Positions 1,008 to 51,647 of a stretch of DNA of 64,000 nucleotides are shown here, in pieces (the first letter of the stretch is position 1; each line of letters opens with the position of its first letter). This stretch comes from an uncultured Gammaproteobacteria bacterium (GTDB lineage: Bacteria; Patescibacteriota; Microgenomatia; Levybacterales; UBA12049), in NCBI GenBank assembly GCA_964637955.1, contig CAZWXQ010000002.1, forward strand, positions 199,782 to 263,781, given 5' to 3'. The notes below the pieces were generated by a model. It saw only the letters and a program-made list of their open reading frames with translations. It did not search any database and had not been told where the DNA came from. Both the position numbers and the translations under genes were made by a program.

Positions 1008-3044
<2,037 letters not shown>

Positions 3045-3083
3045 TTAAATTATCGTAAAGATTATATTAGCAAATAAAATCAA

Positions 3084-3127
3084 GTATTTCCACAGCGAGT
3101 ATCAAGTATTTCTCCGGCGAGTCCTGG
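3084..3127. repeat. Tandem 22-nt direct repeat x2 (ATCAAGTATTTCYMCRGCGAGT) upstream of gyrB
   Basis: atcaagtatttccacagcgagt / atcaagtatttctccggcgagt read directly, followed by the 7-bp inverted repeat CTCCGGC..GCCGGAG. Confidence 0.5.
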
Positions 3128-3151
3128 GTCCTTAGACTGCCGGAGAAAAGC

Positions 3152-3463
3152 TTAAGCCTCTTTAGGCTCTGCAGCTGCTGGAAGACCAAGTCCTGATCTT
3201 AAGTCTTCTGGGATCTCAAAAGCATCAGCTATACTTCCTAGCAATCGATCAACTGCTTTGTTTAGATCTGAACGATCTACAAAGAGCGTCTGATGTTTTA
3301 CCGCTACTGCATCAACTAAAATGTCGGGAATACCTGCCGCTCTAAGTCTTTCTTCAGAGCTAGCTGCTTCGAAGCGTATGTCCGATCTTCCAAATGCAGT
3401 ACTTGACCGTCCGCGAGAAACGGCTTGAGCATCTTCGAGCAATGATCTTTGTCTTTCACTCAT
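3152..3463 (-). CDS. Small hypothetical protein (~103 aa) with strong Shine-Dalgarno site; member of the leader-attenuator gene set
   Basis: ORF 3152..3472. ATG at 3463 is preceded by AGAAGGAGGTGATAATT. Protein is R/E/A-rich (MSERQRSLLEDAQAVSRGRS...). No family recognised. Confidence 0.55.
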   Translation of the reverse strand: MSERQRSLLEDAQAVSRGRSSTAFGRSDIRFEAASSEERLRAAGIPDILVDAVAVKHQTLFVDRSDLNKAVDRLLGSIADAFEIPEDLRSGLGLPAAAEPKEA

Positions 3464-3485
3464 AATTATCACCTCCTTCTAAAAC

Positions 3486-3510
3486 CACAAAAAAACTCCC
3501 TTACGGGAGT
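3486..3510 (-). terminator. Intrinsic terminator/attenuator hairpin ACUCCC-GUAA-GGGAGU plus U7 in the leader of the 3152..3463 gene
   Basis: Plus strand reads aaaaaaactcccttacgggagt. The minus-strand RNA has the hairpin followed by UUUUUUUGUGG, then the SD and ATG 25 nt later. Confidence 0.55.
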
Positions 3511-3615
3511 CAGGTTTTCTAAAGCAAAAAATTAATTTAAATCAAAAATACGCTAGCTCCCAAGAGAGTTAGCTCGCAGCATTTTTGATTTGATAGTCTT
3601 CTTAACATTAGCTTT

Positions 3616-3624
3616 ATAATACCA
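3616..3624 (-). promoter_or_regulatory. Extended -10 promoter (TGGTATTAT) upstream of the leader of the 3152..3463 gene
   Basis: Minus-strand TGGTATTAT lies ~150 nt upstream of the start codon. An upstream GGGAG box (CUCUCUUGGGAGCU) could pair with the terminator 5-prime arm. Confidence 0.3.
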
Positions 3625-3694
3625 AATTAAGATACGGTTTTCTAGTCTTTAATTAAATATACATTTGATTTAGTGGACAACTTCTAATTATTTC

Positions 3695-3940
3695 TTATTC
3701 CTCAGGCTGAGGAATAATTGGCTCACCTGTGGTATGTAGATCTGAAATTATTCCCAGATTCCATGCACCTGATACTTCGACTATTCCTCTTTCCACATAG
3801 TCTCTTAATTCCTCATCAACAATATCCTTTAAAATTTGATCCAATTCTGGATTTGGTGGGAGATCATCGAACAAATTTCTGTTAAAAGGAGGTCTTGGTG
3901 GGCTTTCCACCCAAGTTATCTGTGGGATTGGTCTTTCCAT
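3695..3940 (-). CDS. Hypothetical protein (81 aa); overlaps the 3-prime end of the next gene by 25 nt
   Basis: ORF only. Its stop codon is embedded in the palindrome TTATTCCTCAG-G-CTGAGGAATAA. Confidence 0.3.
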   Translation of the reverse strand: MERPIPQITWVESPPRPPFNRNLFDDLPPNPELDQILKDIVDEELRDYVERGIVEVSGAWNLGIISDLHTTGEPIIPQPEE

Positions 3941-4551
3941 AGTGGAATTAAAGCATTATTAGTTTCGATTTGCTTGGTTTGGCGGGTTTTTTTGAGGAAT
4001 CGAAAATCGCCTTCTTCGACAGATTCTGCTTCACCAGTTTCTACAAGTTTTCCCCACACAGCAGTTGCTGACGGGGAGGGCCAGTCTGAGTGTAATGGCG
4101 TATCGGACAGATATGCTAAAGTTAATGCATTCATCATTCTGTATCTTCTTATTCCTAGCCCTTTTCTTTTAAATGGCTTAAATGTGTATGTTCCTTCTAC
4201 TCGTGGTCTTTCTTCATCCGAATTTTCTCCTACCATAGTTACGCTCGCCATTCCTCTTCCTGTTACTATTCCCATTCTATTTTTATCAAATAGCTCTAGC
4301 GCCCATCCTAAATTTGATCCATCTTCTTGTTCTGATTTCCAGATTATTCCATAAGACGCTGTGTCATCAGAATGATAAACGCCAAAGTATTCTGGCTTTG
4401 AGCTCTTAACTTCTTCTGCTTTGAAATATCTTTTTATGGCATCAATATTATCATCTGGAGATAGTGGAACCAAAATGCCAGACGGAAAATGTTCTCTAAA
4501 AATTTTTTGCCTATCATCTTCCCTGTGTAAATAATTTTCGTTTTCTAACAT
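3916..4551 (-). CDS. Putative GNAT-family N-acetyltransferase (211 aa)
   Basis: RKGLGIRRYRMMNALTLA resembles the GNAT motif A (R/Q-x-x-G-x-G/A). Extended -10 TGTTATAAT lies 8 nt upstream of the ATG. Confidence 0.4.
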   Translation of the reverse strand: MLENENYLHREDDRQKIFREHFPSGILVPLSPDDNIDAIKRYFKAEEVKSSKPEYFGVYHSDDTASYGIIWKSEQEDGSNLGWALELFDKNRMGIVTGRGMASVTMVGENSDEERPRVEGTYTFKPFKRKGLGIRRYRMMNALTLAYLSDTPLHSDWPSPSATAVWGKLVETGEAESVEEGDFRFLKKTRQTKQIETNNALIPLWKDQSHR

Positions 4552-5064
4552 AAGAGTGAATTATAACATTTTTTTGCTTCGATTTACTTGGTTTGGCGAC
4601 TTTGGAGTTAAATCATACTATATTTTCTAAGCAGAAATGTTTTGTTATAATTTTTCATTATGTATTTGCCAGATAGAATTGAAGAAGGTTTGAGGCCCAG
4701 TAATGCATATCATCTTATTCTCCTCTGGACTCCAAATGTTCTTAATCCTCACAAGCTTTTTGCGAATCTTCGACATCCCATTGGTGAAGTTTTTCATACG
4801 AATCATAAGCAAAGGCCAGTGAAAGATTAAAAATGGAATTGCTTATTATATCGTTGAGCATAGACTTTTTGGGCATCTAGTAACTGTAGATGTCGTTAAG
4901 CCCACGAAATTCGCAGATGGAATCTTGCCGCGCGCTAGGCAATTATTTGATAGAAATTTTTATTATGGACATGATAAGGATTTTCCGCAGTCTTTTGAGC
5001 TAATTAACAGGACATTTGTAGTTTGCAATTTCGAGGTTAAGTCTCACTTAAAGAAGCTTCTGAA

Positions 5065-6288: not shown

Positions 6289-6939
6289 TTAGATGTTTAA
6301 GAATAGGTTTTCCATTGTAAGGCGGGTGTTGGTATTTGTAGTTTTCAAATCATAATGAGCTAGCTCAAGCTTGTGAATGATTTTCCTAAGTTTTAGGGCT
6401 TTTTCTGATTTGTTATGCTGAACTTGTTTCAGCATCTCGTCCCTGGCTCCCAAGATTGATTGTTCTAAAAAATTTATTGCTTCAGTTTTTTCTTCTGAGA
6501 TTTTCGAAGCTAGATAAAGCATGCCTCCTTCTCCATCTAGTTCTAGAATCTGATTAATTGCTTCGGGGTCAATCTTAATTTCTTCTTTAATCTCAATTAT
6601 TTTTGCACGAGAAAGAATAGTCGGTAGAAAAGAATGATAATTGTTGGTAATTAAAATTATCATAGAGCTTGGGGGAGGTTCTTCGAGAAGTTTTAGCATA
6701 GCGTTTTGGGCATCAACTGTCGCGCTATTTCGCATATATATAATAGTAGATTTTTTTTCTCCTTTGAAAGGCTTTAGAAATATTGTTTTTTGAATGTTTC
6801 GTACGTCTTCAATTCCCAGGGCTTTTTCAAACTCTTTTATATCGACATCGAACTTATCAATTTTATTTTTTTTGTTAAGTTCCTGCGCTTTTTCCAGAGA
6901 TTTTTCAAAGTTGTTCGCAGAAATAATAAAGGTATTCAT
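6289..6939 (-). CDS. holB: DNA polymerase III delta-prime subunit-like clamp-loader protein (short form)
   Basis: LLKLLEEPPPSS and TILSRA motifs of clamp-loader AAA+ proteins. 216 aa. Confidence 0.55.
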   Translation of the reverse strand: MNTFIISANNFEKSLEKAQELNKKNKIDKFDVDIKEFEKALGIEDVRNIQKTIFLKPFKGEKKSTIIYMRNSATVDAQNAMLKLLEEPPPSSMIILITNNYHSFLPTILSRAKIIEIKEEIKIDPEAINQILELDGEGGMLYLASKISEEKTEAINFLEQSILGARDEMLKQVQHNKSEKALKLRKIIHKLELAHYDLKTTNTNTRLTMENLFLNI

Positions 6940-7063
6940 AGGTCAATTTTCAATTTTAAATTTATAATTCTCAAAGAATTTTAAAAGGACAATTTTTATA
7001 ATTTTAACATTTAAATTTCAATAAAAATTTCAAATTTTAAATTTAAAATTATTTATACTTTCC

Positions 7064-7093
7064 TTGACATTATAGCTAAAATTTAAATACTAT
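7064..7093 (+). promoter_or_regulatory. Sigma70-like promoter of the pilus operon (TTGACA-18-TACTAT); ATG 16 nt downstream
   Basis: TTGACA at 7064-7069. The AT-rich upstream region carries three ATTTTAAATTT-type palindromic repeats. Confidence 0.4.
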
Positions 7094-7108
7094 ATTATAG
7101 TAAGTGTT

Positions 7109-8827
7109 ATGGATCCATCTGCCCAACCATCCAGCCTAAGTTTAATTGATATTTTAGCAAGCGAGCGTCTTCTTACTCAAGCTCAGTATAATGACATTAA
7201 GTTAAAGGCAGCAACCCAAGGAGTTAGCGAAGAGTCAATAATTGAGAGTAATAGGCTTGTCACTGAGGAAAAGATGTCCGAAGCAAAGGCTAAAATGCTC
7301 GGCATTCCATTTGTTTCAATTGAAAATGCTTCTTTTTCACCTGAAGCACTGGGCTTGGTTCCTGAGGCTGTGGTTCAAAGATTTAATTTAATCCCCTTTC
7401 TTTATGATGCAAAAAGTCAAACGCTCTCGATTGCCATGGGAAATCCCGTAGATCTTGATGCGATTACTTTCGTCAGACAAAAAACAGGACTTATCATAAA
7501 AGCATTTGCTGCAGCTCCAAGTGCTGTTAAGGCGGCGATCGATATGCAATATAAACAAGAGCTAGTCGGTCAAGTTGGTGAAGCCCTCAAAGAAACTGCA
7601 CCAGATCCTAGTAAAGCAAAGACAGTTGATTCTACCCAAATTGCCCAGATTATAAAGGAAGCTCCTATTGCCAAGATTGTTTCGACGATTCTCGATTATG
7701 CTGTAAAAAGTAGATCATCAGATGTTCATATAGAGCCTCAAGATGACAGAGTTAGAGTTCGCTATAGAATTGACGGAATTTTATATGATCGACTTAGTCT
7801 TCCTAAGTCAGTTCAGGAAGCTGTTATTTCGCGTATAAAAATTCTTTCTGAAATGAAAATTGATGAGCATAGAATTCCTCAGGATGGAAGATTTAATTAT
7901 AAATCTGATGATAAAGAAGTAGATCTTCGTATTTCAGTTCTGCCTGCAAATCATGGTGAGAAAATTGTTATGCGTTTACTTCGTAAAAGTGGCGGAATAC
8001 CTACCTTACAGGAATTGGGGCTTGAAGGAACTGCCCTTCGAAATCTCGAGGTAAATATGCTTCGTCCCCACGGAATTATTTTGGTAACAGGTCCTACAGG
8101 TTCAGGAAAAACCACTACGCTTTATTCCGTTCTTAATAAGCTTAATAGTCCTAAGATAAATATTATGACTCTTGAAGATCCTGTCGAGTATGAAATGCCG
8201 GGGATAAATCAGGTTCAAGTTAACACTGCAGTTGGTTTGACATTCGCATCAGGGCTCAGGTCTTTCTTGAGGCAGGATCCAAATATAATTCTTGTTGGTG
8301 AAATTCGTGATAAAGAAACCACAGATTTGGCTGTTCAAGCAGCATTGACAGGTCATTTGGTGTTCTCTACTCTTCATACTTCAAATGCTGCTGGAGCAAT
8401 TCCGCGTCTTATAGACTTGGGAGCAGAATCATTTTTGCTTGCGTCATCGATTAGTGCGATTGTGGGGCAAAGAATCGTTAGAAAAATCTGTGCGACTTGT
8501 AAAACTGATTTTGACGCAGCCCCGGCAATCCTAGAAGACATAAAAAAAACTTTAGGAACTATGTTTCCTCAGGGTTCTATTAAATTTTCTAGAGGTCAGG
8601 GTTGCAGTGAATGCGGTAATTCTGGATACTTAGGAAGAGTCGGAATTTTTGAAGTGCTTCCTGTTACGCAAAAAATGTCAGACCTTATACTTAAACGTGC
8701 AGATACAAATACAATCGAAAATGAAGCCATTGCTGAGCATATGATTACTATGAAGCAAGACGGTTATTTAAAGTTAATTCGCGGAGTCACAACTCTGGAA
8801 GAAGTTTTGCGCGTTGCTCAGGAATAA
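7109..8827 (+). CDS. pilB: Type IV pilus assembly ATPase PilB (GspE family)
   Basis: 572 aa. GspII_E N-domain, Walker A GPTGSGKTTT, tetracysteine C..C...C..C motif. Confidence 0.9.
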   Translation: MDPSAQPSSLSLIDILASERLLTQAQYNDIKLKAATQGVSEESIIESNRLVTEEKMSEAKAKMLGIPFVSIENASFSPEALGLVPEAVVQRFNLIPFLYDAKSQTLSIAMGNPVDLDAITFVRQKTGLIIKAFAAAPSAVKAAIDMQYKQELVGQVGEALKETAPDPSKAKTVDSTQIAQIIKEAPIAKIVSTILDYAVKSRSSDVHIEPQDDRVRVRYRIDGILYDRLSLPKSVQEAVISRIKILSEMKIDEHRIPQDGRFNYKSDDKEVDLRISVLPANHGEKIVMRLLRKSGGIPTLQELGLEGTALRNLEVNMLRPHGIILVTGPTGSGKTTTLYSVLNKLNSPKINIMTLEDPVEYEMPGINQVQVNTAVGLTFASGLRSFLRQDPNIILVGEIRDKETTDLAVQAALTGHLVFSTLHTSNAAGAIPRLIDLGAESFLLASSISAIVGQRIVRKICATCKTDFDAAPAILEDIKKTLGTMFPQGSIKFSRGQGCSECGNSGYLGRVGIFEVLPVTQKMSDLILKRADTNTIENEAIAEHMITMKQDGYLKLIRGVTTLEEVLRVAQE

Positions 8828-11923: not shown

Positions 11924-12742
11924 ATGAGCTTTTTTTTTGACAATTATTTATTATTACCCGGATTTATTTTATTTTTAATTGGTTTATTTTTCGGTTCTTT
12001 TCTTAACGTACTTATTGATAGACTCCCCAATGATGAAAGTATTCTTGGAAGATCGCATTGCGAGAAATGTAATCACACATTAAACTGGAAAGATCTAATT
12101 CCTCTTTTATCCTTTGCTTTTCTAAGTGGTCGCTGCAGATATTGTCATACTTCCCTTTCCTATCAATACCCATTTCTTGAGATATTTACGGGAATCATGT
12201 TTGCAGGAACATTTTTATTTACCATTTATCATATACCATTTACAAATGGTCAATGGTCAATGGTCAATGGTCAATTGCTTTCCTTGGTATATCGTTTAAT
12301 TATAGTAAGCTGTCTCATCGTTATTTTCTTTGCAGATTTAAAATATAAAATAATCCCCGATGAGATTCTTCTGGTTTTAGGCGCAACTATTTTTGTCTGG
12401 TTAATTTTTATGAGCCCGAGTCAGATTATCGTTCATTTGTTCGCAGGTCTGGTATCATTCTTATTCTTTCTCTCAATTTATTTACTCACCAAAGGTCGTG
12501 GAATGGGTTTTGGCGATGTTAAATTCGCTTTCGTTATTGGATTACTTCTGGGGTTTCCTGGTACGCTTTTAGCTTTATACATAGCATTCTTGACAGGAGG
12601 ACTCGTGGGCATCATACTAATTTTATGGAAGAAAAAAAGAATGAAATCCGAGGTGGCTTTCGGTCCTTTTTTGGTAATAGGAACTTTTCTAAGCTTTTTC
12701 TTTTCCCCGGTCCTAATTCCAAGAATTCTCCAATTCTTTTAA
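11924..12742 (+). CDS. pilD: Prepilin peptidase / N-methyltransferase PilD (A24 family)
   Basis: N-terminal CEKCNHTL...CRYCHTSL zinc motif, FGDVKF Asp box, multiple TM segments. Confidence 0.85.
   Translation: MSFFFDNYLLLPGFILFLIGLFFGSFLNVLIDRLPNDESILGRSHCEKCNHTLNWKDLIPLLSFAFLSGRCRYCHTSLSYQYPFLEIFTGIMFAGTFLFTIYHIPFTNGQWSMVNGQLLSLVYRLIIVSCLIVIFFADLKYKIIPDEILLVLGATIFVWLIFMSPSQIIVHLFAGLVSFLFFLSIYLLTKGRGMGFGDVKFAFVIGLLLGFPGTLLALYIAFLTGGLVGIILILWKKKRMKSEVAFGPFLVIGTFLSFFFSPVLIPRILQFF
12245..12272 (+). repeat. Heptanucleotide tandem repeat (AATGGTC)x4 inside the pilD coding sequence
   Basis: acaaatggtcaatggtcaatggtcaatggtcaattg read directly. The unit length is not a multiple of 3. Confidence 0.9.
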
Positions 12743-12748
12743 AATCAA

Positions 12749-13507
12749 ATGTATTATGTCTATGTCTTGCAAAATAAAATTAGATCTCAAATCTATGTAG
12801 GATCTACAAATGATTTGAGACGGAGGCTAGCAGAGCATAATCAAGGAAAAGAGAGATCGACAAAAAGATATATGCCTTGGAAGTTAATTTATTATGAGGC
12901 ATTTAATAGTGAAAGTTTTGCAAGACAAAGAGAAATGAAACTTAAATATAACGGAAATGCTATGAAAGAATTAAAAAAAAGAATTGGACTGGATTTACCC
13001 AGCACCTGTTCATCTGAACTAGAGCATAAAGAGAGCCCTTTGCATAGAGGCTTAGGTGAAAATAATAGATTAATTAAAAAGCCAACAGGTGCTGGATTTA
13101 CTCTCATAGAGCTTCTTGTGGTGATTGGAATAATAGGTGTTCTCTCGGCAGGAGTTATCATTGCGATTGATCCTGTGAAACAAATCCAAAGAGCTCACGA
13201 TAAGCAAAGAATTACTGATTTAAAGCAAATTCAGACTGCTCTAGAGCTTTACAGAGCAGATAATGGTCTTTATCCAGCAAATGTAGATTGTGCTGGGGGT
13301 TTAACTGCAACAGTTGACGGAGATACAGTTACTTATTTAAGTGAGGTACCATGTGATCCTAAAGACAACTCTACTTCTTATCCGTATGTTAGAGCTTCTG
13401 GAAACACATCAGACTATACTTTAACAGCGTGCTTTGAAAGCGATAAAGACTATACAGGGTCAGGATCACCTTGCACTAATTATAAATATGAAGTAACTGC
13501 TCCATAA
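12749..13507 (+). CDS. In-frame fusion of a GIY-YIG nuclease-like domain (aa 1-80) to a prepilin with long leader (alternative start ATG at 12962)
   Basis: N-terminus YVYVLQNKIRSQIYVGSTNDLRRRLAEHNQG...WKLIYYE resembles short GIY-YIG proteins. Then LPSTCSSELEHKESPLHRGL...KKPTGAG|FTLIELLVVIGIIGVLSAG prepilin motif. No stop codon between the two parts. Confidence 0.6.
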   Translation: MYYVYVLQNKIRSQIYVGSTNDLRRRLAEHNQGKERSTKRYMPWKLIYYEAFNSESFARQREMKLKYNGNAMKELKKRIGLDLPSTCSSELEHKESPLHRGLGENNRLIKKPTGAGFTLIELLVVIGIIGVLSAGVIIAIDPVKQIQRAHDKQRITDLKQIQTALELYRADNGLYPANVDCAGGLTATVDGDTVTYLSEVPCDPKDNSTSYPYVRASGNTSDYTLTACFESDKDYTGSGSPCTNYKYEVTAP

Positions 13508-14022
13508 TGAAAAATGGAATTAAAAAAGACATTTCTCCCAGAAGTTTTATAGCAAGAAACTCAGGCTTTACTTTAATTGAGCTACTTATAGTAATAACGA
13601 TTATCGGAATACTTTCAGGTGCTTCATTCGCAGTTTTAAATAAATTTAATGGCTCTCAAAATCTAAATATTGCCTCAGAAAATATAAAAAATGAACTTAA
13701 TTTCGCTAAGTCAAATGCATTGTCGCAGGTTTTAAAAAAGTGTACGACTGGCAGATTTGATGGATATAGTTTTCATTACGATCAAGATAGAAATGAATAT
13801 TGGGTCGAAGAAGAATGTACACCTGCTGTCGCAAATAACATAGTTGGTGGTGTAAAAAAGAAACTTCCAGATAAAGTGACATTTCAAGGCAGTGGAGAAA
13901 TTCTTTTTGAACCCTTAGAAGGTGGAGCTGACTTAAGTTCAGCAAGAGTTATAGTTATTCAGAACGAAAGTGGAAGTCGAAGTAAACCTGTAACTGTTTA
14001 TAAATCAGGAGTAATTGAATGA
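13507..14022 (+). CDS. Minor pilin / pseudopilin (prepilin N-terminus)
   Basis: Leader MKNGIKKDISPRSFIARNSG then G|FTLIELLIVITIIGILSG. Confidence 0.75.
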   Translation: MKNGIKKDISPRSFIARNSGFTLIELLIVITIIGILSGASFAVLNKFNGSQNLNIASENIKNELNFAKSNALSQVLKKCTTGRFDGYSFHYDQDRNEYWVEEECTPAVANNIVGGVKKKLPDKVTFQGSGEILFEPLEGGADLSSARVIVIQNESGSRSKPVTVYKSGVIE

Positions 14023-14507
14023 AAAAAAAGAATAAAGGTGCGATTCTTATCGAAGCTATTTTGGGAATTACTATAGCTACGATCATAACAACAGGTTTAG
14101 TCACTGCCCTAGTTTCATCTTTAAGTAATTCCACGTTTTCCAGGGGTCAAACTATAGCTACTGGTTATGCTCAAGAGTCAATGGAACTGATTAGAAGTTT
14201 GAAGGATGTCGATTATGGTTCTTTGGAAGACAGTGTTGGGAGTTGTACTGAAGATAATCCTTGTAAATTTGATCTAAGCACAGGAGACGGTAGACTTGTT
14301 TCTGGCGTTGAATCTATCGATGATGATAGTAATATAGAGTTTGACAGATCTGTTGTGTTAAGTAACGTTAGCGACGAATGTCAAGGGTCCGTGTATGCGA
14401 AGGTTACTGTTGCCTGGCAGGATAGTAAATGTAGTGGTAGTGCCAAATGTCATAAAGTTAACCTTAGATCCTGTTTTTCAAATTTAGATTATGCGCCGTT
14501 ACCTTAA
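14019..14507 (+). CDS. Minor pilin (PilV/GspI-like), short leader
   Basis: MKKKNKG|AILIEAILGITIA. Confidence 0.65.
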   Translation: MKKKNKGAILIEAILGITIATIITTGLVTALVSSLSNSTFSRGQTIATGYAQESMELIRSLKDVDYGSLEDSVGSCTEDNPCKFDLSTGDGRLVSGVESIDDDSNIEFDRSVVLSNVSDECQGSVYAKVTVAWQDSKCSGSAKCHKVNLRSCFSNLDYAPLP

Positions 14508-15177
14508 TAAAAATCATAATAAGAGGGATTTACCCAGCACCTGTTTACCAGAGCTGGAGCATGAAGAAAAAGCTTTGCATAGAGGCTTAGATGAAGATAT
14601 TAAATTGGTTAGAAAATCAGCTGGTGCTGGGTTTAGCTTAATTGAGCTACTTGTCGGCATGGCAATTACTGTGACTGCAACCACTATTATACTTGCGATA
14701 GTAATGTCTGCTTTTCGGGTAAGTAGCAAGGCTACGACTGCAGATTTAGCTCGTCAAAACGGAAATTACGCAATGAATAGGATGATTAAGATGATTCAAT
14801 TTGCGGATAGTTATAATGGCAGGAGTACGAGTCTTCTTTCCACAGCGGGTGAAAGTGGTTACCGTGTTAATGATTGTGATGGATCAAATAATACTGCAAT
14901 TAGCATTACATATAAAAATGAAGAAAAGATACTGCAATGTCGAGGGCACAACTCGCTTTACCTCATAGATCCTGTCGATACAACTAAAAATGAACAACTG
15001 ATTCGTACCAGCAGTGTGGCTGTAAGCAATTGTAATATTAGTTGTTTAGAAGTTAGGCCGGGCGCATCCCCTGTTATAACTATAAAATTTGATTTAACAA
15101 TCGGCGAATCCGACGCTGCAATAGAAAAAAGATCGTCGATACCATTTAGAACAAGTGTAAAAATGCGTAATAAATGA
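14491..15177 (+). CDS. Pilin-like protein with 47-aa conserved leader; paralog of the 12749 gene C-terminal part
   Basis: MRRYLNKNHNKRDLPSTCLPELEHEEKALHRGLDEDIKLVRKSAGAG|FSLIELLVGMAI. About 80% nucleotide identity to 12991-13110. Confidence 0.7.
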   Translation: MRRYLNKNHNKRDLPSTCLPELEHEEKALHRGLDEDIKLVRKSAGAGFSLIELLVGMAITVTATTIILAIVMSAFRVSSKATTADLARQNGNYAMNRMIKMIQFADSYNGRSTSLLSTAGESGYRVNDCDGSNNTAISITYKNEEKILQCRGHNSLYLIDPVDTTKNEQLIRTSSVAVSNCNISCLEVRPGASPVITIKFDLTIGESDAAIEKRSSIPFRTSVKMRNK

Positions 15178-16091
15178 GGTGGTTTATTGACACTAGGCAG
15201 CCTAGTTGTTACTCTAAATATATGCCATTTAATGTGAATAGGCGTTTTCGGGATGAATCGGGACAAGTGCTTTTAATAGTAGTTCTTGTGGCTGTTATAT
15301 CTCTCACAGTAGGACTAGCTGCAGTAAGTAGATCTATAACCAATACAAGAGTATCTACGGAAGAATCAAATTCCCAAAAAGCTCTTTCAGCTGCCGAGGC
15401 AGGGCTTGAAGCTCAGATTAATAAAGCAAATGAAAATCCCGATGCTGCTATACCAGAACTTGATAAAAATTTTGATAGCAGTACAGGTTATAAAGCAACC
15501 GTCACTAAAAATACTGACCCACAGATTTTAATTAATAATGCTGAAGTAGATGTATTAAAGACTGAAGGAGCAGACGTTTGGTTGTCTAAATACCCAGATT
15601 TTACTGATCAAAAAAGTCCAAACATCAGTGTTTATTGGAGCGCAAACTCAGGTCCATGCTCAAATGACGCAGCTATAGAAATAGTAATATTAAGAGGAAG
15701 AGATACTACTCCGGCTGCGAAGAATGATCCGATACTTGAGAGATATGCTGTTGATGGGTGTAGTTCAAGACCTGGTGGCGATAATAATTTTGATGATGCA
15801 AGTGCATCAACGGATCGTGGTAGCAGCGTAGCCTCACTTACTCTCAAAGGAAAAAAGTTTGACTATAGATATAATATTCCAAACCAAATTATTAATGGTT
15901 ATATTATGAGAATTATTCCTATTTATAATGACGCAAAAATAGGAGTAAGTAGTGATATACCTCTTCCAGCTCAGGGTTTTGATATAGAATCTGAAGGTAC
16001 TTCTGGAGAAACAAAGCGAAAAGTAAAAGTATTCCAGAGTTTTCCTACTGTTCCTATTGAAATTTTCCCTTATAATTTATTTAACCCATAA
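15174..16091 (+). CDS. PilX-like minor pilin / pilus-associated protein (likely start at internal Met near 15219)
   Basis: ESGQVLLIVVLVAVISLTVGLAAVSRS resembles the PilX N-terminal domain. Confidence 0.5.
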   Translation: MRWFIDTRQPSCYSKYMPFNVNRRFRDESGQVLLIVVLVAVISLTVGLAAVSRSITNTRVSTEESNSQKALSAAEAGLEAQINKANENPDAAIPELDKNFDSSTGYKATVTKNTDPQILINNAEVDVLKTEGADVWLSKYPDFTDQKSPNISVYWSANSGPCSNDAAIEIVILRGRDTTPAAKNDPILERYAVDGCSSRPGGDNNFDDASASTDRGSSVASLTLKGKKFDYRYNIPNQIINGYIMRIIPIYNDAKIGVSSDIPLPAQGFDIESEGTSGETKRKVKVFQSFPTVPIEIFPYNLFNP

Positions 16092-20943: not shown

Positions 20944-20972
20944 AGCCTCGCAAGGCCAGGCCTTGCGAGGCT
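20944..20972. repeat. REP palindrome AGCCTCGCAAGGCC-A-GGCCTTGCGAGGCT (perfect 14-bp arms), 5-prime flank of the RAYT gene
   Basis: Read directly. Flank is GATTAGCCTCG...GAGGCTG. Confidence 0.9.
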
Positions 20973-20997
20973 GACATCAAGGTGATATCGTTAGATT

Positions 20998-21666
20998 ATG
21001 CCATCGAAAAATTCAAGAAAAGAGTTTTTAGAAAATGGATATTATCATATTTACAATCGTGGTGTAGAAAAAAGAAAAATTTATCTAGATCAACAAGATT
21101 ATGCTGTCTTCCTTTCTTATCTTAAAGAATATTTGACTGAGAAAAATGAAAAAGAGCTTTATGAAATTTTAAATAATCCACAAACTTCTTATCAAGAAAA
21201 AGACAAAATATTAAAGCAAATCAGATTAAATAATTTTTATCAAGAAATAAAATTAGTCGCATATTGTCTGATGCCAAATCATTTTCATTTTTTTATAAAA
21301 CAAAATAAATATAACTCTATTTCTAAATTTATGAATTCATTATGTACGAGATATACTATGTACTTTAACAAGAAATATGATAGGGTAGGTTTTCTATATC
21401 AAGGAGTTTATAGGGCTGTTTTAATTAAAAACGAATCTCAATTTTTACAGCTTTCTCGTTATATACATAAACAGGCATTGCCTTTTCAGCCATCATCATT
21501 TAAAAGATATTTGAATCAGAATAAAACAGAGTGGATATATCCGGAGGAAGTATTATCCTATTTTTCGATCGAGCATCCAAAATTAAGTTATCAAGATTTT
21601 GTTATTGGAGAAAACGAAGAAAATATAAATTTTGCCTTAAAAGATATTATTTTGGATGATGATTAG
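20998..21666 (+). CDS. IS200-like HUH tyrosine transposase (REP-associated tyrosine transposase, RAYT)
   Basis: 222 aa. GYYHIYNRGVEKRKIY N-terminus, HUH motif LMPNHFHFFI, catalytic YIHKQ (Y-x3-Q). Flanked on both sides by identical REP palindromes. Confidence 0.75.
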   Translation: MPSKNSRKEFLENGYYHIYNRGVEKRKIYLDQQDYAVFLSYLKEYLTEKNEKELYEILNNPQTSYQEKDKILKQIRLNNFYQEIKLVAYCLMPNHFHFFIKQNKYNSISKFMNSLCTRYTMYFNKKYDRVGFLYQGVYRAVLIKNESQFLQLSRYIHKQALPFQPSSFKRYLNQNKTEWIYPEEVLSYFSIEHPKLSYQDFVIGENEENINFALKDIILDDD

Positions 21667-21692
21667 CCTCGCAAGGCCAGGCCTTGCGAGGC
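21664..21692. repeat. REP palindrome (perfect copy), 3-prime flank of RAYT; supplies the RAYT stop codon (gatTAGcctcg)
   Basis: Identical 29-nt palindrome. Same flank orientation as the 20944 copy. Confidence 0.9.
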
Positions 21693-21827
21693 TGGAGAGT
21701 CCCTTTGTCTTAAAATTTGCCTATGGGTTCCTGCAAATGCTTTTATAGTAATTAAATAAGTGTTATTATAATTAAAGAGAGCCGTGGGCCCTATATATAA
21801 TAGTGTTTTAGTAATACTACTATGGGC

Positions 21828-40724: not shown

Positions 40725-40751
40725 TTAAAACCTGTTAGCCTCGATTAGCCT

Positions 40752-40780
40752 CGCAAGGCCAGGCCTTGCGAGGCTGGAGT
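40752..40780. repeat. REP palindrome (perfect copy) with partial duplication of its 5-prime flank (tagcctcgaTTAGCCTCG)
   Basis: Read directly. Lies 42 nt downstream of the truncated greA stop. Confidence 0.9.
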
Positions 40781-45007: not shown

Positions 45008-45081
45008 TGGGCCCGACAGGATTCGAACCTGTGACCTCAGCAATGTCAATGCTGCGCTCTAACCAACTGAGCTACGAGCCC
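45008..45081 (-). tRNA. tRNA-Val (anticodon GAC)
   Basis: GGGCTCGTAGCTCAGTTGGTTAGAGCGCAGCATTGACATTGCTGAGGTCACAGGTTCGAATCCTGTCGGGCCCA. Cloverleaf verified by hand. CCA not encoded. Confidence 0.85.
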
Positions 45082-48912: not shown

Positions 48913-48996
48913 TGCGGATGAGAGGACTCGAACCTCCACGCTTTTTAAGGGCACAAGATCCTAAATCTTGCGTGTCTACCATTCCACCACATCCGC
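48913..48996 (-). tRNA. tRNA-Leu (anticodon TAG), class II with long variable arm
   Basis: GCGGATGTGGTGGAATGGTAGACACGCAAGATTTAGGATCTTGTGCCCTTAAAAAGCGTGGAGGTTCGAGTCCTCTCATCCGCA. Confidence 0.8.
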
Positions 48997-51576: not shown

Positions 51577-51647
51577 GCGGGTATAGTACAATGGTAGTAC
51601 ACCTGGTTGCCAATCAGGTTACAGGGGTTCGATTCCCCTTACCCGCT
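51577..51647 (+). tRNA. tRNA-Gly (anticodon GCC)
   Basis: GCGGGTATAGTACAATGGTAGTACACCTGGTTGCCAATCAGGTTACAGGGGTTCGATTCCCCTTACCCGCT. Cloverleaf verified by hand. Confidence 0.85.

Follow-up and report, generated by a model that had tools for sequence, protein, structure and literature searches.

Two pilin-like genes, pilin A and pilin B, lie in a type IV pilus operon within a 64,000-nucleotide stretch of contig CAZWXQ010000002.1 (assembly GCA_964637955.1), the whole of which is referred to here as the window. They share a segment of similar sequence immediately upstream of the prepilin cleavage site, which a first-pass annotation of the DNA had taken for an unusually long leader. Comparison with related loci indicates that these 'long leaders' are probably two copies of a palindromic, hairpin-forming DNA element that is linked to a GIY-YIG nuclease and has spread through the Patescibacteria (the candidate phyla radiation, CPR). 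In the full form of this element, the arms of the palindrome bracket an 81-aa nuclease gene; copy A adjoins an intact nuclease open reading frame (ORF), and copy B is an ORF-less form. A bolder proposal, held with rather less than even confidence, is that the GIY-YIG cassette may be specialised on the prepilin junction and may have the prepilin peptidase PilD as its 'splicing' enzyme, a single cut yielding both the pilin and the free nuclease.

Insertions at two prepilin cleavage sites

A syntenic locus from another metagenome (L001), reached through PilM, contains both pilin orthologues with short leaders and without inserts, and the breakpoints are clean in blastn and MAFFT alignments. At pilin A, window positions 12729 and 13092 align with L001 positions 7039 and 7038, which are adjacent bases (blastn), and at pilin B positions 14522 and 14629 align with 8522 and 8530 (blastn and MAFFT). 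The extra DNA of the window amounts to 364 nt at pilin A, comprising the nuclease ORF and a further ~103 nt, and to 103 nt at pilin B, and both inserts stand directly 5' of the GG-TTT codons of the cleavage site (G↓F, where the arrow marks predicted cleavage by PilD). The inserts are flanked by short direct repeats; at pilin A, L001 has a single copy of the repeat, corresponding to an empty site. In L001 the pilin B orthologue begins MLNYLNKNHKNNKG↓FSMIELL, with a leader of 13 aa, and the ORF of the pilin A orthologue (6935-7489) reads …PNSNSKNSG↓FTLIELL straight into the pilin, with a leader of 35 aa from the sole in-frame ATG, overlapping pilD. Given that the L001 orthologues have short leaders and lack the segments, the flagged segments are, as judged from the alignments, insertions and not intrinsic leaders.

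Insertion A also reaches into the upstream gene: the last codons of pilD (…LQFF and stop, TCCAATTCTTTTAA) come from the inserted DNA, such that the C-terminus of PilD is …PRILQFF in the window and …PRILDLLS in L001 (window 12720-12742, L001 7020-7055), where pilD runs into the pilin's own GGATTTACTCTCATAG. At pilin B, the net gain is 99 nt owing to a 4-nt upstream difference, so the native ATG is kept in frame. The reading of an intrinsic long leader therefore does not stand, since the segment is missing from the orthologues of this relative; the 47-aa leader of copy B, counted from that native ATG, is nevertheless probably translated.

A mosaic is seen in two further syntenic loci, L002 and L003, both of which carry the nuclease at pilin A. 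In L002 an identical 41-nt hairpin is found in two pilin genes, one of them right after pilin A, with a variant at pilin B, and in L003 there is no insert at pilin B. The linker reads DLPSTSSRVARTGAG in L002 and is a different sequence of 35 aa in L003, and the C-x5-H-x5-H spacing that had been described as conserved is missing from both. L003 also has, at 4368-4461, an ORF-less copy in the pilC-pilin spacer (13-bp arms TCCAGCACCTATT and AATAGGTGCTGGA, 68-nt interior), so that not every copy in this lineage lies in a leader. At L002 7675-7705, upstream of the pilin B orthologue, a right arm, a 6-nt repeat and a left arm stand back to back (GGTGCTGG-ATTTAC-CCAGCACC), an arrangement that looks like an end-to-end junction of the element (circle or tandem); the leader that follows, MNFNISLSKRIGSFKASAG↓F, holds a KRIG remnant.

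A palindrome defined at the level of DNA

The similarity of the two copies was borne out: the shared 20-mer GGATTTACCCAGCACCTGTT occurs at exactly two sites in the window, 12991 and 14526, against 0 expected, and had no exact match in metagenome contigs; the copies have 77% ungapped identity across 141 nt and 83% mean column identity in a 200-nt alignment. The 12-bp perfect inverted repeat of copy A, CCAGCACCTGTT and AACAGGTGCTGG with 73 nt between, is as first described (Table 1). The stem of copy B had been given as 8 bp and is really a 10-bp perfect repeat displaced 2 bp outward. The core arms of the element are ACCCAGCACC…GGTGCTGGGT, and its terminal inverted repeats, 12 bp in copy A and 10 bp in copy B, reach 14-21 bp in canonical copies.

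By itself, a perfect inverted repeat of 12 bp is no rarity in the window: with arms up to 120 nt apart, such repeats occur at about 8 loci, where simulations give 1.3 pairs, and the window is rich in such repeats partly because of three perfect 14-bp repeats with 3-4-nt loops (20944-20974, 21665-21695 and 40747-40777) that are probably intrinsic terminators. Two other perfect repeats, at 6952/7039 and 17403/17529, are AT-rich and unrelated to the element. The significance of the repeat rests on the paralogue, on the enrichment of CCAGCACC in the window (6 sites, 0.49 expected) and on conservation in other genomes.

Three surveys define the wider family. Residues 1-142 of the ORF, used as a protein query, found 432 proteins, and the best 120 clusters were inspected; a scan of GTDB, with one genome per species, gave 569 GIY-YIG relatives, of which the best 80 were inspected; and an unbiased metagenome scan for the canonical short hairpin found at least 120 copies, 80 of which were read among the matches listed. 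In the DNA of the best 80 GTDB loci the canonical layout is GGNTTTAC-CCAGCACCACTTTT-(0-30 nt)-ATG…GIY-YIG…-AAAAGTGGTGCTGG-GTTTAC. Many loci have CCAGCACC ~10-40 nt upstream of the ORF, GGTGCTGG at 4-142 nt on its downstream side or a complete hairpin after it, and many have an extra complete hairpin 3' of the ORF, as does copy A in the window. There are also ORF-less hairpins of ~40-120 nt, some of them in the leaders of adjacent pilins.

Among more than 30 distinct hairpins the core is constant and the inner stems vary yet remain complementary (ACTTTT/AAAAGT, AGTTC/GAACT, TGTT/AACA, TATT/AATA and ACCTGT/ACAGGT), with 915 Watson-Crick pairs against 57 mismatches; G·U and A·C mismatches are equal in number, 14 and 14. 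The interiors fall into two size classes, 8-36 and 78-87 nt. No conservation of the interior was found between genomes: the ends alone align, and the interior of copy A resembles copy B only. Derivation of the interior from the nuclease gene by deletion was considered and set aside, the local alignment scores being inside the shuffle range. The first-pass annotation had named loss of the stem in relatives as a ground for giving up its reading; the stem is preserved there, with complementary changes, so that this ground is absent, and it is the interior and the C/H spacing that are not conserved.

Different proteins read the DNA motif TTTACCCAGCACC in different frames, all three being represented (FTQH, LPST and YPAP), and stand-alone relatives of the nuclease often end in …PSTTF, …YPAPL or …GFTQHHF, which are the same three frames. 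Because the motif occurs in all three frames, in 23S rRNA and at many non-pilin sites, this is, on the evidence of the sequences, a DNA-level element and not a leader peptide motif or a riboswitch.

Many copies lie precisely at the GGN-TTY-ACN codons (Gly-1, Phe+1 and Thr) of type IV prepilin genes, between direct repeats of this target. The right arm there encodes (K/S)GAG just before Phe+1 and gives a new Gly-1; the canonical right arm with its flank encodes K-S-G-A-G↓F-T, and GAG↓F at element-bearing junctions in other genomes is encoded by GGTGCTGG. The empty target form of the site is GGATTTACTCTCATAGAG. The direct repeats are an identical 8 bp in copy A and match at 6/8 positions in copy B, and they track rare local variants in L003 (TTTTC) and L023 (TTCAC), but not in L025 or L043. 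The left repeat of copy B, GGATTTAC, is that of copy A, as against its own right repeat GGGTTTAG and an empty site of GGCTTTAG, which fits copying from A by repair via the pilin N-terminal codons and the 8-nt repeat, or drift.

The GIY-YIG nuclease

The ATG at 12962, from which the pilin A ORF had been counted, lies within a longer ORF of 252 aa that is open from ATG 12749 and whose first 73 residues are a GIY-YIG domain (Pfam PF01541, E = 4e-18). The nuclease is single-domain, with 81 aa in the window and 81-102 aa in stand-alone relatives. Its AlphaFold model is confident (pLDDT 92.8) and comes closest in fold to UPF0213 BH0048 and to Slx1, a structure-specific nuclease, with I-TevI and UvrC further off, and the nearest PDB sequences are UPF0213 BH0048 and EF2693; a match to TIGR01453 covers residues 4-40 only and is below cut-off. 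Between the window, L002, L003 and L005 the ratio of non-synonymous to synonymous substitution (dN/dS) is 0.08-0.17 at a dS of 0.7-1.7, indicating purifying selection, and to judge by its sequence the nuclease is intact and old.

The GIY-YIG ORF is bracketed by a second 12-bp perfect inverted repeat, TCCAATTCTTTT and AAAAGAATTGGA, the left arm of which forms the last codons and stop of pilD and the right arm the conserved K-R-I-G codons. This second repeat is conserved in L003 and has 1-2 mismatches in L002; other loci have CCAGCACC there instead.

Distribution across genomes and sites

The best 80 of the 569 GIY-YIG relatives are all from CPR-type metagenome-assembled genomes. Several GTDB records with the CPR-type nuclease and pilin context (L007, L015, L025, L031, L034, L038, L046, L054 and others) are titled 'uncultured Gammaproteobacteria' or 'Bdellovibrionales', titles that look unreliable. 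Of the best 120 protein clusters, about 41 fuse GIY-YIG to a prepilin; these fusions are 190-250 aa long, have unrelated pilin C-domains and all end …(K/S/N)GAG↓F(T/S)L(I/V)E. Prepilin junctions hold ~15-17 of the 80 hairpins read among the metagenome matches listed, and ~61 are elsewhere; the palindrome is therefore scattered but strongly over-represented at one very small class of sites.

In many Saccharibacteria genomes (L059-L084) the same nuclease gene is within the 23S rRNA gene; at L059 2350-2680 it lies inside the Rfam LSU match (1615-4948), bracketed by a perfect 21-bp repeat, CCAGCACCTTTGAAATCGAGT and ACTCGATTTCAAAGGTGCTGG, and this copy looks like an intervening sequence with a processing stem. 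At L041 2950-3400 a full arm-ORF-arm cassette, flanked by GTTTTAC and GTTCAC, interrupts a gene whose 3' part reads as RHS/YD-repeat-like (…AGARYYAQDIGRFTRIDP).

Consequences for the pilins

Insertion A severs the ancestral leader and makes a 252-aa nuclease-prepilin ORF, and insertion B lengthens a leader of normal size (13 aa) by 33 codons, in frame; both products, of 252 and 228 aa, are already recorded as called proteins. The prepilin motif is present in both (…TGAG↓FTLIELLVVIG in A and …AGAG↓FSLIELLVGMA in B), with Gly-1, Phe+1 and Glu+5 intact, and PF07963 (N_methyl)/TIGR02532 matches residues 115-136 of the pilin A ORF. Prepilin leaders are typically short and basic, of 6-30 aa. The 47 aa of B and the 116 or 45 aa of A exceed this range, and overall these are not short leaders.

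Every GAG↓F junction examined has a start codon upstream with no stop between. In-frame fusions make up 17/23 nuclease-adjacent junctions (binomial p = 8e-5 versus one third), and the remainder have, within the element, an ATG or GTG from which a short, lysine-rich leader is read, such as MGLKNNFINKINKNGAG↓F. A Met at the position of 12962 is found in 15/37 fusions compared with 11/73 stand-alone nucleases (Fisher p = 0.004, relatedness ignored), which hints that internal initiation is sometimes used in fusions.

A model for insertion and removal

By analogy with the Ssn nucleases discussed below and with Slx1, it is suggested that the nuclease recognises the hairpin or cruciform of the arms, and that it drives, or once drove, the copying of the element into TTYAC-type sites. 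The insert, open in frame and carrying a valid cleavage motif, would then be cut off by PilD on the cytoplasmic side, so that the mature pilin would be normal and, in the case of copy A, the nuclease would be set free. Prepilins sit N-in and PilD cuts at the cytoplasmic face; an extension at the N-terminus would not have to pass through the membrane, even as a folded domain of 9 kDa. Removal of this kind would account for the tolerance and accumulation of insertions at the cleavage site. The similarity of A and B (77-83%) would reflect copying within the genome.

Several observations weigh against this interpretation. First, the flanking genes of L001 are only ~70-81% identical to those of the window, and loss in L001 is as possible as gain in the window lineage. 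Second, about three quarters of the sampled hairpins are not at pilins, and the enrichment at pilins could partly reflect tolerance, not targeting. Third, the flanking direct repeats are often imperfect and most non-pilin copies are without them; given also that the left repeat of copy B matches copy A and not the local target, a classical target-site duplication is not proven. Finally, the nuclease ORF in the window, and likewise in L002 and L003, is without the canonical upstream arm and is bracketed instead by the second repeat, which the model does not account for.

Alternative explanations

It is possible to see the fusion as a domesticated host function, in which PilD frees an Ssn-like nuclease at the pilus or competence machine to process or restrict incoming DNA and the hairpins mark self or regulated loci. 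In-frame fusions are indeed far above chance, widespread and under strong purifying selection, and in Neisseria an Ssn nuclease with hairpin repeats modulates type IV pilus-dependent natural transformation (PMC11893778). Nevertheless, this is unlikely on three counts: the presence of the element differs between related genomes and between pilin paralogues, the pilin partners are of many unrelated types, and there are ORF-less copies as well as copies in 23S rRNA, an RHS-like gene and intergenic DNA, all of which an opportunistic element fits better.

The segment could instead be functional as a long leader in its own right, as a cis-acting mRNA hairpin for pilin translation or as a C/H-based leader peptide, the last two being among the three roles first proposed for it. 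The stem is kept with compensatory changes in relatives, the frame is kept open, and the predicted folding of copy A is modestly better than that of shuffled sequences (z = -2.7). However, copy B folds no better than shuffles (z = -1.1), and G·U pairs are not favoured among the stem mismatches, although the equal counts are uninformative on RNA-level versus DNA-level constraint. A pilin-specific mRNA regulator is also unlikely in view of the occurrence of the same arms ~300 nt apart around GIY-YIG ORFs, in 23S rRNA and at many non-pilin sites. As to a cis-regulatory leader RNA or riboswitch, the orthologous positions are without the segment, Rfam matched only tRNA and rRNA in the window as a whole, in 12600-15300 scanned at permissive settings and in six related loci, and the stem is conserved as a mobile palindrome. 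Promoter-like matches, with regard to an outward promoter in the interior (TTGCAT…TAATAG), were at or below chance level. For a leader peptide with its own function, neither the interior nor the C-x5-H-x5-H spacing is conserved, and a profile of the two leader peptides searched against 5.8 billion proteins recovered only the generic pilin N-terminus; the peptide motif is not a family. Taken together, a function of the leader itself is very improbable.

The remaining role first proposed, a recombination site for pilin variation in which the shared 140 nt serve as a homology patch for gene conversion between paralogues, comes closest of the three in that it invokes a sequence-level process and not a peptide function. 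A and B are 77-83% identical across the patch only, the remainder of both genes being unrelated, and the left repeat of B, matching A and not its own target, points to copying between genes. As an explanation of the element it is given very little credence, since neither silent cassettes nor exchange of pilin domains was seen, the similarity ends at the conserved N-terminal helix and the element also lies outside pilins. Least credible of all is that the insertion inactivated pilin A, and perhaps B, with nothing made: the ancestral leader of pilin A is severed and out of frame, but the 252-aa frame is open, its Gly-1, Phe+1 and Glu+5 are intact, and the orthologous fusions of L002 and L003 are still open despite a dS of ~0.7-1.3.

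Relation to known systems

Ssn nucleases bind hairpin repeats and cut adjacent single-stranded DNA (Chenal et al. 2025, PMC11893778). The nuclease-linked palindrome shares with Ssn and its NTS/SRM repeats a small single-domain GIY-YIG gene with hairpin-forming inverted repeats on its flanks and further copies of them scattered through the genome, a repeat-gene-repeat architecture like that of insertion sequences (IS) and a link to pilus-dependent biology; flanking by repeats is seen in many of the best 80 loci and, in the window, on the downstream side only. The repeat sequence differs, and a regular-expression search of the window for the degenerate SRM motif HGTCWYN(0-2)YYVSBRHN(0-5)WNVSBRGN(0-2)RNCYNB gave 0 matches. 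In the present element half-site arms often stand on either side of the ORF, and the closest relatives of known structure are UPF0213 and Slx1. NTS repeats are seldom intragenic (2%; PMC11893778), whereas a large number of copies here fall within coding sequence at one specific codon junction. The architecture itself is thus known from Ssn/SRM, and what is new appears to be a hairpin-repeat nuclease element specialised for the prepilin leader.

Rickettsia palindromic elements and intragenic MITEs (miniature transposable elements with inverted repeats; PMC10969869) are likewise short palindromes that are in frame in coding genes and are translated without destroying the product. The Rickettsia elements, for which no linked nuclease is known, occupy sites of structural tolerance in a wide range of unrelated genes, whereas here there would be a cognate nuclease gene and a preferred site whose product a signal peptidase removes. 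As in MITEs and transposons with terminal inverted repeats, such repeats are present, but the sole linked ORF is a GIY-YIG nuclease and no link to a DDE-type transposase was seen. In REP/RAYT and IS200/IS605 systems (via PMC11893778) hairpin repeats also flank a small nuclease or transposase gene and a short specific target lies at the hairpin foot; the enzyme there is an HUH tyrosine transposase and here a GIY-YIG nuclease, and there is no sign here of single-strand transposition.

GIY-YIG ORFs have been reported in non-intron insertions of CPR rRNA genes, without arms or a pilin link (PMC11270868). These 23S intervening sequences share the nuclease family, the CCAGCACC arms are present as the 21-bp inverted repeat in Saccharibacteria 23S, and the insert is presumably removed by host processing; removal would be at the level of RNA there (RNase III) and of protein here (PilD). 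With homing endonucleases of the I-TevI type the element has in common the GIY-YIG fold and presence or absence at a conserved target in a conserved gene; it differs in its length of only 81 aa, in having no DNA-binding domain, no intron or intein and no Rfam intron family, and in its palindromic ends. Literature searches that paired GIY-YIG with pilin, prepilin, CPR or MITE turned up neither an account of GIY-YIG-prepilin fusions nor one of this palindrome.

Features of the locus

The type IV pilus operon occupies 7.1-18.4 kb of the window and contains pilB, pilT, pilC, pilin, pilD, five pilin-like genes and pilM/N/O. Another of its pilin-like genes, at 14019-14507 (MKKKNKGAILIEAILG…), has no canonical G↓F site and matches no Pfam family, and it is kept in L001-L003. 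Three tRNA genes (45008-45081, 48913-48996 and 51577-51647) are the only above-threshold Rfam matches in the window.

Table 1. Coordinates of the two insertions and the surrounding genes in the window.
Feature	Position	Strand	Remarks
pilD, prepilin peptidase gene	11924-12742	+	Pfam A24_N_bact, Peptidase_A24
Orphaned ancestral leader ORF of pilin A, MEEKKNEIRGGF…PNSKNS	12625-12777	+	split from pilin, out of frame
Insertion A, 364 nt, GIY-YIG cassette and palindromic element	12730-13093	+	no counterpart in L001
Left arm of second 12-bp perfect inverted repeat, TCCAATTCTTTT	12729-12740		repeat search
GIY-YIG nuclease coding part, 81 aa of the 252-aa ORF 12749-13507	12749-12990	+	Pfam PF01541
Right arm of second inverted repeat, AAAAGAATTGGA	12977-12988		codons K-R-I-G; repeat search
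Left direct repeat A, GGATTTAC	12991-12998	+	copy of pilin G-F-T codons; identical to 13094-13101
Element A left arm, CCAGCACCTGTT	12999-13010	+	core CCAGCACC conserved across CPR loci
Element A interior, 73 nt	13011-13083	+	open in pilin frame; in-frame TTG 13040 after AAAGAGAG
Element A right arm, AACAGGTGCTGG	13084-13095	+	encodes T-G-A-G, supplies Gly-1
Right direct repeat A, GGATTTAC	13094-13101	+	Gly-1 13094-13096, Phe+1 13097-13099, Thr; predicted PilD site
Mature pilin A (GspG/T2SSG-like)	13097-13507	+	partial matches Pfam T2SSG, NCBIfam GspG-like
Pilin B ORF	14491-15177	+	native start and first ~12 codons, inserted 33 codons, G↓FSLIELL
Insertion B, 103 nt, no nuclease ORF	14526-14628	+	missing from L001 and L003 orthologues
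Insertion B left direct repeat, GGATTTAC	14526-14533		
Insertion B left arm, ACCCAGCACC	14532-14541		
Insertion B interior	14542-14622		in-frame TTG at 14575 and 14605
Insertion B right arm, GGTGCTGGGT	14623-14632		
Right direct repeat B, GGGTTTAG	14629-14636	+	pilin B Gly-1, Phe+1-Ser
Pilin A leader	from ATG 12749		116 aa
Pilin A leader	from ATG 12962		45 aa
Pilin A leader	from TTG 13040		19 aa
Pilin B leader	from ATG 14491		47 aa

Implications

If the proposed use of PilD is correct, the cassette, which is widespread in CPR bacteria, would do at the protein level what introns and inteins do for selfish nuclease genes; its copies in 23S rRNA would mirror the pilin case, with RNA processing removing them. 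This would represent a new route to harmlessness for a selfish gene, namely to sit in a discarded signal peptide, and would mean that prepilin peptidases accept folded N-terminal domains of ~90-120 aa as leaders. If the element is as interpreted here, hundreds of annotated CPR 'GIY-YIG nuclease family proteins' of ~200-250 aa would be prepilins with an embedded mobile nuclease gene, and the leaders of CPR pilins would at present be misread. An Ssn-like nuclease with a defined hairpin (ACCCAGCACC…GGTGCTGGGT) and target (GGN-TTY-AC) might also provide a sequence- or structure-specific DNA tool. More broadly, the element would bear on the diversification of type IV pili, which in these ultra-small, host-dependent bacteria are the main surface organelle.

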